NCBI GenBank assembly: GCA_038841535.1
Contig: JAWBTQ010000002.1
Coordinates: 96,001 to 160,000 of the forward strand
Length of the DNA stretch: 64,000 bases
DNA from: Sulfolobales archaeon
Lineage (GTDB): Archaea > Thermoproteota > Thermoprotei_A > Sulfolobales > NBVN01
Direction of reading: 5' to 3'
This document shows positions 12,492-16,863 of this stretch, one piece after another. The stretch's first letter is position 1, and each line of letters begins with the position of its first letter. The notes beneath the pieces are model-generated. The model did not search any database and was not told the origin of the DNA. It saw only the letters and a program-made list of their open reading frames with translations. The translations under genes were made by a program, and so were the position numbers.

Positions 12492-12830
12492 ATGTCGAGA
12501 GGAGGAAGCATTCCCCTCGGAACCTTGGTAGGCTTCATAGTGCTTCTGATGTTTGGTTGGGTGCCCATCTTGGGGCCTCTCGTGGCCGGCTTTGCGGCTG
12601 GACTCATAGCCAGGGGAGCATTACGGGGCTTTGCGGCCGGGTTCCTAGCCGGTATTCTCGGGGCAGTACTCGTCGGACTATCACTGAGTCTACTTGGAGC
12701 GCTACTATGGGGACTGATGGGGGCGTTAATCGGGTGGATAATAGGGTTTGGAGGAGTACTGTTGCTGTCCATTAGTATAGCCATACTCACTGCGCTAGGG
12801 GGTCTAATAGGCGGCGCTCTTAGGAGCTAG
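12492..12830 (+). CDS. Small Gly-rich membrane protein (DUF5518-like)
   Basis: PILGPLVAGFAAG...G..AGFLAG...ALGGLIG hydrophobic GxxxG repeats. Confidence 0.75.
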   Translation: MSRGGSIPLGTLVGFIVLLMFGWVPILGPLVAGFAAGLIARGALRGFAAGFLAGILGAVLVGLSLSLLGALLWGLMGALIGWIIGFGGVLLLSISIAILTALGGLIGGALRS

Positions 12831-13040: not shown

Positions 13041-14168
13041 TCAGCACACCCTATAATACCTAACCTTTCGCCTTCCCTTGGACTTAAACTCGCTGCACAC
13101 TTTACCCATCTCCTCCATCGACTCTAGGACCTTATAGATTCCGCGAAGGGAATAAGCGGGAAAAACCTTCCATACTTCGTACGCCGTAGCCTCCCCACTT
13201 CTCTCTAGTACGCGAATTATCTCTTTACGCACATCTTTATCTGCCTTCCTGCTAGCCGAAAGAGGTCTAAAGCCCATAGTTACGACTGCTATGGAGTTCC
13301 CCATGTTTTCGGCTACAGTGTAGGCAGATGCGGATAGAGACTTCGTTTTGACTCCACTTTTCCAGAGCCTCACCAAGGAGTTAAACGCTTCATCCCTACT
13401 TATCTCGACGAGCTTGATCGACCTAGCGAACTCGGGTAGAATGAGGTTCTTCACTCCTTTAATCGAGGTAGCCACTACTTCGTAGGATGCGTTTACACCC
13501 ACATCCTCTAGGTCTCTAAAGCCCTTCCAGATCGAGTAAGCTAGCAATCCTGTCCTCGCTGGAACAACTACTCTATCTACTCTAAGCCTCCTCTCATATA
13601 TCTCGAGAGCGATAGTTTTCAGCCCCTCCACAGTGAGAGGGGTTGCGTAGCCTAATAGGGAGGCCTTCCCATTCTCGCCGAAGACCAGCTTCACATTCCC
13701 GGTTCGCAACAGTATGTCTACATCTAAGTAGTCAAGCGATAAAGGATCCTCCACGACTACTTCGACAGAGGAGACTCCGTTAAGGTAGTAAGCGAGGGAG
13801 TAGGTGAAGTCTTCCTCGAACTTCGTTCTAATGGTTACGAATCCCTTTGAGAGTACGTAGCTCGCTATGACGGAGGAAGCTCTATCAGAGTAAGTGCCTG
13901 TGGGATTGTAACGCTCGTTTTTGACTAGCACTCCTCCAACAGTGTTTACTGGAGTCAACCCCTCTCCCTTCGAGATAACCTTCTCTAATTTAGGTAGCAC
14001 AGACCTGTATCTCCAAATGCCCGGCCCTGCTCTTTCCACTCTAAACACTCCATACGGGTACTTGAAGACCGTAAGCCACCCACAACTCGGGCAGGTAAAG
14101 ACCTCTTCGCTGTACGCTCTTCCACACTTTCCGCAGACCAGCAATTCCTGAGCTACTGCCGTACTCAA
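13041..14168 (-). CDS. Degenerate threonine-synthase-fold protein with N-terminal Zn ribbon and C-terminal winged HTH
   Basis: CGKC..CPSCG, GIWRY, GEGLTP, NPTGTYSDR (Lys replaced by Ser), EGLKTIALEI, C-terminal IIRVLE..GEATAYEV..GIYKVLESMEEMGKV..RYY. Confidence 0.75.
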   Translation of the reverse strand: MSTAVAQELLVCGKCGRAYSEEVFTCPSCGWLTVFKYPYGVFRVERAGPGIWRYRSVLPKLEKVISKGEGLTPVNTVGGVLVKNERYNPTGTYSDRASSVIASYVLSKGFVTIRTKFEEDFTYSLAYYLNGVSSVEVVVEDPLSLDYLDVDILLRTGNVKLVFGENGKASLLGYATPLTVEGLKTIALEIYERRLRVDRVVVPARTGLLAYSIWKGFRDLEDVGVNASYEVVATSIKGVKNLILPEFARSIKLVEISRDEAFNSLVRLWKSGVKTKSLSASAYTVAENMGNSIAVVTMGFRPLSASRKADKDVRKEIIRVLERSGEATAYEVWKVFPAYSLRGIYKVLESMEEMGKVCSEFKSKGRRKVRYYRVC

Positions 14169-14179
14169 GGCTAGGACCG

Positions 14180-14788
14180 CTACTTCCTCACTAACGAGAC
14201 CATGTACTCGTACAGTCTTGTGTCTCCTGAGATCTCTGGATGGAACGTTACAGCGAGAACATTATTCTGGATAGCCACCGTACCCACTTTACCGATATCT
14301 GGGTGGTCGAGATAGCCCACTATCCTCGCATCACCCCAGGCTTCAACTATCGCAGGCGCTCTTATGAAGACCGCCCTCACAGTGCCTATTCCATCGACGA
14401 AGACCTCCGTTTCAAAAGACTCTCTTTGTCGGCCGAAGGCATTTCTTCGTATAGCTATATTCATCAACTCGAGGAGAGGTTGCCCTGTCTCGCCAACCAC
14501 TCTATCTACTACTTTCTTAGCTAGGAGTACTGCCCCAGCGCAAGTCCCCATTACAGGCTTTCCTTCTCTCGCTAGGTCTGCGATAGCTACGTCCATTCCC
14601 GTGACTCTCATTAAACTACCTATGGCGGTAGACTCGCCCCCGGGTATGATCAGAGTATCTATACCTACTAAGTCTCTAGGTGACTTAACCGGTACAGCCC
14701 TAACCCCGCTGAGCTCGGAAAGCAACTGCAGGTGCTCTAGGAAGTCTCCCTGGAGGCTCAGCACTCCGACTACTACCAAGTTACTCAC
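14180..14788 (-). CDS. pdxT: PLP synthase glutaminase subunit
   Basis: [40 protein letters not shown]. Confidence 0.96.
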
Positions 14789-15794
14789 CCCTCACTTGCA
14801 TGAGCTCCTCCGGCTTCAGCCTCCTCACGTCCATCCCCGTCATTGAGGACCTCTCGGAAACCATTTTCTGAGCTTCGGCAACGATCTCCGGGTCGTCGTA
14901 ATAGGTAGTAGCCAGTACTATAGCTCTAGCCCTAGCCTCCGGGTCTGAGCTCTTGAAGATCCCAGAGCCCACGAAGACCCCATCGGCCCCCAACCACATC
15001 ATGAGCGCAGCATCTGCCGGTGTAGCGATGCCTCCAGCAGCAAAGTTTACGACGGGCAGTCTACCGAGTCTCGCAGTAAGTAGAACTAGTTCATAGGGAG
15101 TCTTGTTCTCCTTCGCGTATACCCAAAGAGCCTCGATGTCTCTCGATGTGTAGTATCCTTTCAGTGTTGCGATATCTCTATTAACGAGCTTCATGTGCTT
15201 TACTGCCTCCGCAACGTTACCCGTACCGGGCTCTCCCTTCGTTCTTATCATAGACGCTCCCTCAAATATTCTCCTCAGTGCTTCCGGGAGGTTTCTTGCT
15301 CCGTTCACGAACGGCACTCTAAACTCCCACTTGTTAATGTGGGCTCTCTCGTCTACTGGAGTGAGGACCTCGCTCTCATCTATGAGGTCTACACCTACCT
15401 CTTCGAGCAGCCTTGCCTCCTCGGTGTGCCCTATTCTGCACTTAGCAGATACGGGTATTGTAATAACATCCGTAACTCTCTGAATGACGTCCAACCCAGC
15501 CGTTCGGGCAACACCTCCAGATACCCTGACGTCGTAGGGGAGCTTATCGAGGACCATGACACCCACAGCACCAGCGTCTTCAGCTATTTCAGCCTGCTTC
15601 TCGCTAGTGACATCCATTATTACTCCTCCCTTAAGCATTGACACGAAGCCTAGCTTAACCAGAGTACCCCCTAACTTAATAAGCGGGAGCGAACCACCCT
15701 CCGCAGAAGACCTATCCCTAAGTTCCAGTAGTTGGTATATCAAGTCGCGAAGCTTCTCGATAAATACGTAAGAGTCAGTGAGCTTCACTTGCAC
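14781..15794 (-). CDS. pdxS: PLP synthase lyase subunit
   Basis: [52 protein letters not shown]. Confidence 0.97.
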
Positions 15795-15957
15795 ACCGCC
15801 AGTATAGCTTTCGGCCTCCCTGAAATAACTGTTATTGAACGTTCAACAGGTTTCCCAAAAATTCGAAACTTCGGTAATCTAAGGGGTAGGTAGGCGAAGG
15901 TCAAAAAGTGAAGCAATGTCCAAGCCGGCTTGTTTTAAGTACTTGTGACAGGATCTA

Positions 15958-16863
15958 CTGGGGATAGCAATATCTGCTGCTCTACTAGTACTACTTGTGC
16001 TTGTAATCCTGTCAGTACTAGCATTAGCTCTCAGAGAGATTCGCCGCTCGAGACTTGCTAAGGCTGTTGTTGCTGTTAAAAAAATGCTGGTTACTGGTGA
16101 GGAGGGAGTCTCCTTTTCTAGACCTCTGAACGCTGAGCTCGGCAGGCTAACGATTGTTGGGATAGTTGGCAGGAAAGGTTACAGAGCCCTCGCAGAGTTC
16201 ACACCTTCATCTAAACTCCTGCTCGGCAGTATTCGCTACCGTGACCTATGCTCAGGGGGTTACCTACTCGCCGTAGACAGTGTAGGTAACGGCTACTTGA
16301 ACACGCCAGCCGTCAGGATTTTGATAAAACCATTCGAAAACGTTCTTGTCGCATGTTTAGACCCGTCGGAAGTCCATACAGTAGCGAAGTCCATTGAAAT
16401 AGTTGAGGAGAATTCGACAGCAAAAAGCGTTATTCACGTCTCCGGCGGTAGGTACTCAGCTAGAGTCTCATGGGAATCTTTCGTGCTGCCCTCCTGGAGG
16501 CTAGTCTACGAGCCGATGAGAGGGTCCTACAGAATCGTGAAAGAACCCGGGGTTGGAGTAAGAGTAAGGAGCGTGCGCGTAGAAGTCTGTGCTAAGTCTT
16601 TAAGCTACTTCACTCCCGAGATCTGCGCTACCATTACTAGGCTGGCAAAAGTGGATAGTGAAGCCTCCGGCACACTAGAAGGACTAATAGGTAGGAGGCT
16701 CGTGGTTGTGCACATGGCTTACGTAAACCTCCTCGACCTAGCTAGAGAGCTCGGGATAGCTAGATACCCACACATATCTGGGTACTCTAGCGGCTATATT
16801 AAAGCTAAGTTAACTATGGAGGTACCGATGGCTAAGAACATAGTAAGGGAAGAACCGGTCTAG
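15958..16863 (+). CDS. Hypothetical protein with N-terminal membrane anchor
   Basis: Long ORF (track start 15997); the frame stays open to a CTG at 15958, ~24 nt after TTTAAG, which completes a TM helix. Confidence 0.6.
   Translation: MGIAISAALLVLLVLVILSVLALALREIRRSRLAKAVVAVKKMLVTGEEGVSFSRPLNAELGRLTIVGIVGRKGYRALAEFTPSSKLLLGSIRYRDLCSGGYLLAVDSVGNGYLNTPAVRILIKPFENVLVACLDPSEVHTVAKSIEIVEENSTAKSVIHVSGGRYSARVSWESFVLPSWRLVYEPMRGSYRIVKEPGVGVRVRSVRVEVCAKSLSYFTPEICATITRLAKVDSEASGTLEGLIGRRLVVVHMAYVNLLDLARELGIARYPHISGYSSGYIKAKLTMEVPMAKNIVREEPV

Follow-up and report, generated by a model that had tools for sequence, protein, structure and literature searches.

The contig JAWBTQ010000002.1 of a Sulfolobales archaeon (assembly GCA_038841535.1) carries an operon for the synthesis of pyridoxal 5'-phosphate (PLP), the last gene of which encodes a protein that joins a threonine synthase (ThrC) fold lacking the Schiff-base Lys to a C-terminal winged helix. 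Here, we analyze this protein as a candidate regulator of vitamin B6 supply. All coordinates refer to the window, i.e., the whole stretch of 64,000 nucleotides that was analyzed (positions 96,001 to 160,000 of the contig). Three minus-strand genes lie head to tail:

14781-15794, minus strand: pdxS, the lyase subunit of PLP synthase (GTG start; NF003215, 456.9 bits, cut-off 395)
14180-14788, minus strand: pdxT, the glutaminase subunit of PLP synthase (TIGR03800, 170.3 bits, cut-off 105.55; TAG stop codon at 14180-14182)
13041-14168, minus strand: gene for the Lys-less ThrC-fold/winged-helix protein (P0001; 375 amino acids, TTG start), the candidate B6 regulator

The pdxS and pdxT genes overlap by 8 nt. 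A sequence-only reading of the window had placed the start of the third gene 11 nt past the pdxT stop and had made it the final gene of the pdxS-pdxT operon. Both statements hold: the distance from the stop to the TTG was read from the coordinates, and the gene downstream of the operon (12492-12830, DUF5518) is located on the other strand and convergent; therefore, the open reading frame (ORF) at 13041-14168 ends the operon. Metatranscriptome contigs from one dataset, 95 to 99% alike, covered parts of pdxS and its flanks and none of 13114-14718, which is no test of expression; three raw-read RNA runs, sampled to 3 to 5%, yielded 0, 0, and 1 read, which tests neither expression nor cotranscription.

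Within the third gene, the following features were recognized:

14082-14135, minus strand: N-terminal four-Cys Zn ribbon, residues 12-29
13269-14021, minus strand: degenerate fold-type II (ThrC-like) domain, residues ~50-300, the putative sensor, delimited by Pfam, profile, Foldseek, and alignment
13887-13889, minus strand: Ser codon tct in place of that for the Schiff-base Lys, within the motif NPTGTYSDR
13044-13259, minus strand: predicted C-terminal winged helix-turn-helix, residues 304-375, with helix-helix-helix-strand-strand topology in the models
13143-13145, minus strand: codon of Arg342, at the start of the putative recognition helix SLRGIYK

The ThrC-like nature of the central domain, a fold of the tryptophan synthase beta type (fold-type II), is clear from several approaches. 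The protein matches the Pfam family PALP (E value of 9.5e-14, 51.8 bits, cut-off 35), and, among the PDB entries, a profile built from its family detects ThrC (6cgq, 7e-12). In a search with the whole-protein AlphaFold model (pLDDT 89.2, pTM 0.77), the top Foldseek matches were the ThrC structures 1v7c, 2zsj, and 6nmx (E value ~6e-14, TM score ~0.6). The catalytic Lys is lost. Ser replaces the Schiff-base Lys by direct reading of the codon, and an alignment with Lys-bearing ThrC has KFEEDF in place of DSSGN, VVPARTGL in place of VVPVASGT, and VTMGFRP in place of LTGNGLK. The sequence-only reading, in which the Lys had given way to Ser, the ASxGN loop to FEEDF, and the phosphate loop to PARTG while the Zn ribbon and the winged helix were kept, proved accurate in all these points. 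The ribbon is borne out by Cys conservation (C12, C26, and C29 without exception, C15 in at least 90% of 39 members), and such a ribbon is also found in Lys-bearing archaeal ThrC. The winged helix is borne out by structure prediction, both in the whole model and when the domain is folded alone (pLDDT 83.9), where it adopts a helix-helix-helix-hairpin arrangement. The structural neighbors of the isolated domain are TFE-alpha, an operator-bound ROK repressor, and PadR-family regulators (4ejo, 5zi8, 3elk, LmrR, and 5x11), with TM scores of 0.6 to 0.76 and E values of 3e-4 to 4e-3; the TFE and ROK winged helices score as well as those of the PadR family. Pfam matches of the C-terminal 79 residues were weak only (FUR, 0.0017; PadR, PF03551, 0.061, 13.8 bits versus a gathering threshold of 27), and neither GntR nor aminotransferase class I/II was matched by the protein in Pfam. 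A two-copy fold (alignment A1) scored 0.10 and 0.03, short of the mark of 0.42, and was used neither for nor against dimerization.

A word-indexed search of 5.8 billion proteins revealed 95 further protein clusters, full length or nearly so, with 38 to 99% identity; the ESM Atlas returned only related archaeal PALP clusters. All named sources belong to the Thermoproteota: Sulfolobales metagenome-assembled genomes, Acidilobaceae, Desulfurococcaceae, Ignisphaera, Hyperthermus butylicus, Pyrodictiaceae, Fervidicoccaceae, and Conexivisphaera. Hyperthermus butylicus and Ignisphaera aggregans are cultivated carriers. The loss of the Schiff-base Lys, noted for the window protein by the sequence-only reading, extends to its orthologs. 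Among the 95 sequences that cover this position (window protein included; one homolog fragment without the region stands outside the count), the residue is Ala in 56, Ser in 28, Val in 6, Leu in 2, and Thr, Ile, and Gly in one each; Lys is found in none. The aligned family likewise lacks the (S/T)xGN loop and a stretch of ~30 residues, and it reads PAxTG for PxGSG and VTMGF for TGxGLK. Residues N88-P89-T90-G91, D95, R96, E181, K184, P203, G207, and T297 are kept. Because it is conserved across the Thermoproteota, the architecture is more than a chance product of this one genome.

Would these proteins nevertheless be enzymes, with threonine synthase or a related fold-type II activity that dispenses with the Schiff-base Lys? 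The ThrC-like fold would agree with this, as would the database labels of members, threonine synthase or PLP-dependent enzyme. We regard it as highly improbable, given that the window protein scores far under every ThrC cut-off (NF004170, its best NCBIfam match, 105 versus 421 bits; NF006205, 68.9 versus 358; TIGR00260, 25.4 versus 167.1), that no member of the family retains the Lys, the Asn loop, or the complete small domain, and that an ordinary ThrC (359 amino acids, with NPTGSFKDR and SSGN) is encoded elsewhere in the same genome.

To map the distribution of the family, a sample of 401 genomes from across the Thermoproteota was searched with its profile. Full-length members were found in 41 of these genomes, the window genome included (E values of 1.9e-77 or lower, plus one copy split over two contigs), and the next matches, at 1e-43 and weaker, span the ThrC part only. 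Among the 21 carriers that also have pdxS, the order is pdxS-pdxT-gene in 10 and gene-pdxS-pdxT in 2, the genes are 2.8 kb apart in 1, with NAD synthesis encoded in the interval, and they are unlinked in 8. The linkage to pdxST that had been read from a single locus thus recurs, at distances of less than 3 kb and in three arrangements, in 13 of these 21 genomes. The other 40 carriers divide evenly into 20 with and 20 without pdxS, most of the latter being 99% complete. No common theme emerged among the neighbors of genes away from pdxST, which include ThermoDBP-RP, acetyl-CoA synthetase, Macro, HAD, cytochrome bd, and epimerase genes as well as those for an HrcA-CBS regulator, OMP decarboxylase, aspartate dehydrogenase, M29 peptidase, and DUF981.

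Upstream of pdxS, two features mark a putative control region:

15835-15846, strandless: candidate operator, the perfect 12-bp palindrome TTGAACGTTCAA, recognized by its conservation upstream of pdxS
15823-15828, minus strand: TATA-like box TTATTT, separated by 6 nt from the palindrome upstream and by 29 nt from the pdxS GTG downstream, with a putative promoter role

In the window, TTGAACGTTCAA is the sole match with up to one mismatch (0.07 expected), and it is the sole perfect match in the 1.56-Mb genome. A corresponding site lies 52 to 88 nt upstream of the first pdxS codon in all 21 family-positive genomes with pdxS, with no mismatch in 15, one in 3, and two in 3; the 8 genomes with an unlinked gene are among them. 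The 15 perfect sites read TTGAACGTTCAA or, in genome family f27, TTAAACGTTTAA, while the mismatched ones always keep the core GAACGTTC or AAACGTTT. An A/T-rich box is present 6 to 8 nt past the palindrome in the pdxS promoters of the other 20 carriers, too, and in both genomes with the order gene-pdxS-pdxT the site falls between the gene and pdxS.

As a control, 80 family-negative genomes were taken, 45 of which contain pdxS. In these 45, the 300 nt preceding the pdxS match contained no site with up to one mismatch, and the 8-bp core was nowhere in the 530 nt fetched; the best upstream matches had two mismatches in 3 genomes and three to five in 42. The contrast is also seen within genome families: in f19 between genus g61 and genus g42 (9 genomes), in f27 between g63/g84 and g126/g132, in f8 inside genus g22, and likewise in f2, f4, f6, and f16. 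The conserved palindrome at the pdxS promoter is found only where the protein family occurs, in 21 of 21 genomes versus 0 of 45 when a site with up to one mismatch or the core is counted for the negatives.

A second line of evidence connects the protein with the palindrome. The position of Arg342, in the putative recognition helix, is Arg in all 23 carriers whose half-sites read TTGAAC and Gln (5) or Leu (3) in all 8 whose half-sites read TTAAAC. Lys occupies it in two genomes, whose sites are TTGAACGTTTAA and TTGAACGTTCAG. The pairing of Arg with guanine and of Gln with adenine is classical in protein-DNA recognition. These observations bear on the possibility that some other protein binds the palindrome and that the window protein, which would have no DNA-binding activity, accompanies the regulon as a B6-handling factor, e.g., in the service of PLP synthase or as a carrier or chaperone of PLP. 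Its place as the last gene of the operon would suit such a role, and noncatalytic PLP-binding proteins are known (YggS/COG0325). We consider this improbable, although less so than an enzymatic function, since the confidently modeled winged helix is nearest to operator-binding regulators, the co-occurrence of protein and site holds also where the gene is unlinked, the recognition-helix residue covaries with the operator base, and the protein is kept in 20 genomes without a PLP synthase to assist.

These 20 genomes widen the putative regulon. The 41 carriers together contain 41 copies of the pattern TTRAACGTTYAA versus 12 of the reversed control pattern, and 15 of the 41 copies are the perfect pdxS sites. 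Of the 26 perfect sites elsewhere, 21 were examined and 5 were left unread; the 21 are distributed as follows:

upstream of an orthologous APC-family permease gene (~468 amino acids): 10 of 21
between divergent ABC binding-protein and permease genes: 2 of 21
upstream of genes for ECF S-components (PF07155): 2 of 21
upstream of an MFS transporter gene: 1 of 21
upstream of a class V aminotransferase gene: 2 of 21
upstream of a CoA-transferase gene: 1 of 21
inside ORFs: 2 of 21
position ambiguous: 1 of 21

Carriers without a perfect site have sites with one or two mismatches at the same place before the orthologous permease gene (G167 and G205) or before ABC genes (G078, G385, and G349); in G331, the ABC gene is at a contig end. 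Because the palindrome precedes transporter genes in carriers that lack pdxS, the putative regulon is B6 supply, by synthesis or by uptake, and not pdxST alone. The role as a regulator of pdxST that the sequence-only reading had proposed is strengthened by the operator at the pdxS promoter in 21 of 21 genomes, while its scope had to be extended to transporter genes, given that 20 of the 40 other carriers have no pdxS.

We therefore propose, with a probability of roughly 75%, that the protein is a one-component transcription factor that controls the vitamin B6 supply of the cell. The PadR-like winged helix at its C terminus would bind TTGAACGTTCAA; as the two halves of this site form a perfect inverted repeat, a dimer is the probable binding form. 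The site would abut the B recognition element (BRE)/TATA region of pdxS, and the regulated unit in the window genome would be the pdxS-pdxT-regulator operon; as the regulator gene is inside this operon, the protein would control its own synthesis too. In relatives without PLP synthase, the same site precedes the genes of transporters that are candidate B6 importers. The sensor would be a threonine synthase fold turned into a ligand-binding module, from which the Schiff-base Lys, the loop that binds the substrate carboxylate (Asn loop), and about 30 residues have gone, and in which the Gly/Thr phosphate loop and a Thr aligned with the TGxGLK motif are retained. The position of the site next to the BRE is compatible with either sign of control, and we give roughly even odds to a PLP-dependent repressor and to an activator that works in its apo form and is turned off by PLP, like bacterial PdxR.

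The most likely ligand would be PLP or another B6 vitamer, held noncovalently, because the Gly/Thr phosphate loop and the TGxGLK-aligned Thr are kept; binding of a B6 vitamer can be argued from the conservation of G207, T297, and the NPTG..DR motif. If the protein is a regulator, we put the odds of a B6 vitamer slightly above even. A transcription factor for the palindrome that responds to something else, i.e., an amino acid, its adduct with PLP, or a signal from the precursors of PLP (such as ribose 5-phosphate or the glutamine status), appears unlikely, if less so than a B6 handler. Such a ligand would fit a domain that descends from an amino acid enzyme and has given up the Lys and the Asn loop, both parts of canonical PLP handling. 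It would fit poorly with a regulon of B6 synthesis, transporters, and a PLP-dependent aminotransferase. An amino acid is further disfavored by the deletion of the substrate carboxylate loop and of the ~30-residue segment, and a precursor signal is disfavored by the persistence of the regulator without pdxS, where there is no synthesis pathway to report on.

Several points weigh against a B6 regulator of this kind. The evidence is wholly comparative, and the genomes compared are kin. The Gln and Leu cases of the covariation all come from genome family f27, so they amount to one or two events in evolution. The family carriers G054, G370 (89% complete), and G099 (where the gene looks truncated) yielded no site. 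A site with up to two mismatches was likewise absent from the 250 nt that precede the regulator gene at all 28 loci with an identified ORF (32 loci read), unlinked ones included; therefore, autoregulation would be confined to genomes in which the regulator gene is part of the operon. As the reversed control pattern reaches 12 occurrences versus 41 in the 41 carriers, some isolated sites outside pdxS, such as the CoA-transferase site and the two inside ORFs, may be due to chance. The palindrome is no commoner genome-wide in carriers (8 sites in 19 same-order genomes versus 26 in 41, family-negative); it is only its placement, and not its genome-wide frequency, that sets carriers apart. Genome-wide enrichment of TTRAACGTTYAA was accordingly rejected as a test, family-negative genomes being equally rich. 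Additional regulon members in the window genome were also rejected: the four sites with one mismatch adjoin unrelated genes (CLP1-like/KsgA genes, SBP_bac_5/ASCH genes, or an Hfq-like ORF) or lie inside an ORF. The pocket is heavily degenerate. In fold-type II enzymes, the Asn loop contacts O3' of PLP, and because this loop is gone, PLP binding is not assured by the sequence; with such a pocket, the ligand can only be guessed at from the regulon.

The richness of some family-negative genomes in TTRAACGTTYAA deserves separate mention as a further weak point. In G002 and G117 (f11), G041 and G009 (f17), and G165 (f39), all without the short family to which the window protein belongs, the pattern is present 4 to 12 times per genome and the control 0 to 1 times. 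Most of the 20 sites viewed in G002 and G041 are inside ORFs, so these are no promoter elements; restriction-modification and codon context are possibilities for the abundance of the pattern in f11, f17, and f39.

Other observations concern the surroundings of the operon and of its relatives. The PdxS protein of the window has a 44-residue N-terminal extension that precedes the Pfam SOR_SNZ match. In all 20 other family-positive genomes the alignment of PdxS begins at residue 2 to 9, and in 20 of the 45 family-negative genomes the match begins only at residue 34 to 42. A plus-strand ORF of 288 amino acids (15997-16863) diverges from pdxS; it belongs to no Pfam family, its only match being Pectinesterase with an E value of 0.042. 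The intergenic region between the two contains a second perfect 12-bp palindrome, CAAGCCGGCTTG, at 15921-15932. In G271 (L035, C12:12832-25950), three genes on the other strand separate the regulator gene from pdxS-pdxT, and the one of them that was scanned encodes an aspartate dehydrogenase (Asp_DH_C, NAD synthesis). In genus g21 (L034, 7148-7825, in G355; L037 in G205), a gene for a HAD-family hydrolase is convergent to the regulator gene, with that of a Macro-domain protein just upstream; a role of this hydrolase as a B6 phosphatase is speculation. The member in G099 (C5:54851-55786, L184) covers only profile positions 6 to 320 in a 336-amino-acid frame in which no winged-helix signature was found. 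Genome searches of G099 found no pdxS, APC permease, or palindrome, and the regulon may be decaying there.

Literature searches found no paper on the protein family or the palindrome and no regulator of vitamin B6 metabolism in Archaea. From the comparative evidence, the system probably represents an archaeal switch for genes of B6 synthesis and uptake that has so far not been described. According to the accessible part of a 2023 survey (PMC9997740), B6 transporters have yet to be identified in many organisms; regulators are not treated in that part. Another paper (PMC7325993) was set aside as irrelevant, PdxS appearing in its accessible part only in a list of the Thermoplasma chromatin proteome. 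If the proposal is true, the gap left by the missing archaeal B6 regulator would be filled by a convergent solution that differs in its PLP fold and its DNA-binding domain and uses a pseudoenzyme as the sensor, and the family would illustrate clearly how an enzyme without catalytic function is put to new use in sensing. The widespread annotation of its members as threonine synthase or PLP-dependent enzyme would be corrected. The APC-family permease, the ABC system, and the ECF S-component would be nominated as candidate archaeal B6 importers. The operator would be short and open to testing.

The closest functional parallel is found in bacteria. In PdxR and other regulators of the MocR/GabR subfamily, as in the window protein, a sensor derived from a PLP enzyme and a winged helix are joined in one polypeptide. 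The PLP-binding Lys is kept in the PdxR domain. PdxR combines an N-terminal GntR-type winged helix with a fold-type I, aminotransferase-like domain, whereas the window protein consists of an N-terminal Zn ribbon, a Lys-less fold-type II ThrC domain, and, at the C terminus, a PadR-like winged helix; as they are not homologs, their likeness would have arisen by convergence. The regulons also resemble each other. PdxR regulons comprise pdxST, pdxK, the transporter gene pdxU, and aminotransferase genes, i.e., PLP synthesis, B6 transport, and aminotransferases, and have operators of repeated boxes, according to the accessible part of PMC5320631, which also names YggS/COG0325 and describes MocR regulators as not present in Archaea. 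The convergent archaeal equivalent of PdxR on a fold-type II pseudoenzyme that the sequence-only reading had suggested finds support in the family-wide loss of the Lys, the linkage to pdxST, the distribution of the operator, and the covariation of the recognition helix. From these comparative data, the protein is probably a functional analog of PdxR that arose convergently on a dead ThrC fold.

Within Archaea, the nearest counterparts are the long proteins of NF004170 (PRK05638), which share the Zn ribbon, the Lys-less ThrC fold, and the C-terminal winged helix; the winged helices of the two forms align (alignment A3). All 11 genomic copies of the long form (L139, L140, L143, and L167-L174) have Arg, Thr, Met, or Ile in place of the Schiff-base Lys, and Arg is found in P0097 and P0099. 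The long form differs in its length (434 to 498 amino acids), in keeping (S/T)xGN, PxGSG, and TGxGLK, and in its PALP scores (152 to 260 bits versus 51.8 for the window protein), and its member L168:757-2067 reaches 699 bits on NF004170, versus 105 for the window protein. No pdxS or pdxT was present within ~1.5 kb of the long-form genes at the 11 loci examined. The name threonine synthase is probably wrong for these proteins, too. That Archaea built B6 regulators from threonine synthase, with the short and the long families both being Lys-less, ligand-sensing transcription factors, is a proposition to which we give an even chance. On this reading, the palindrome regulon of the short family would also point to the archaeal B6 importers, and the pairing of Arg with guanine and of Gln with adenine would provide a readable recognition code for the family.

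The two parent folds are represented by known proteins. ThrC itself (TIGR00260; 1v7c, 6cgq, and 2zsj) has the same fold and clear sequence homology, and archaeal ThrC also shares the N-terminal Zn ribbon; the window protein is without the Schiff-base Lys, the Asn loop, and ~30 residues, its phosphate loop is altered, and a predicted DNA-binding domain has been added to it. The C-terminal domain resembles the winged-helix fold of the PadR family (LmrR, PadR, Rv3488, and TA0346), the members of which are small stand-alone dimers without an enzyme-derived sensor, and it stays below the Pfam PadR threshold. An enzyme-derived vitamin regulator is already known from the Crenarchaeota: ThiR, in which a ThiN domain is joined to a helix-turn-helix. 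In ThiR, as proposed here for the B6 regulator, the fold of a biosynthetic enzyme has been reused as the sensor of a vitamin regulon, with a different fold, a different vitamin, and a different operator.

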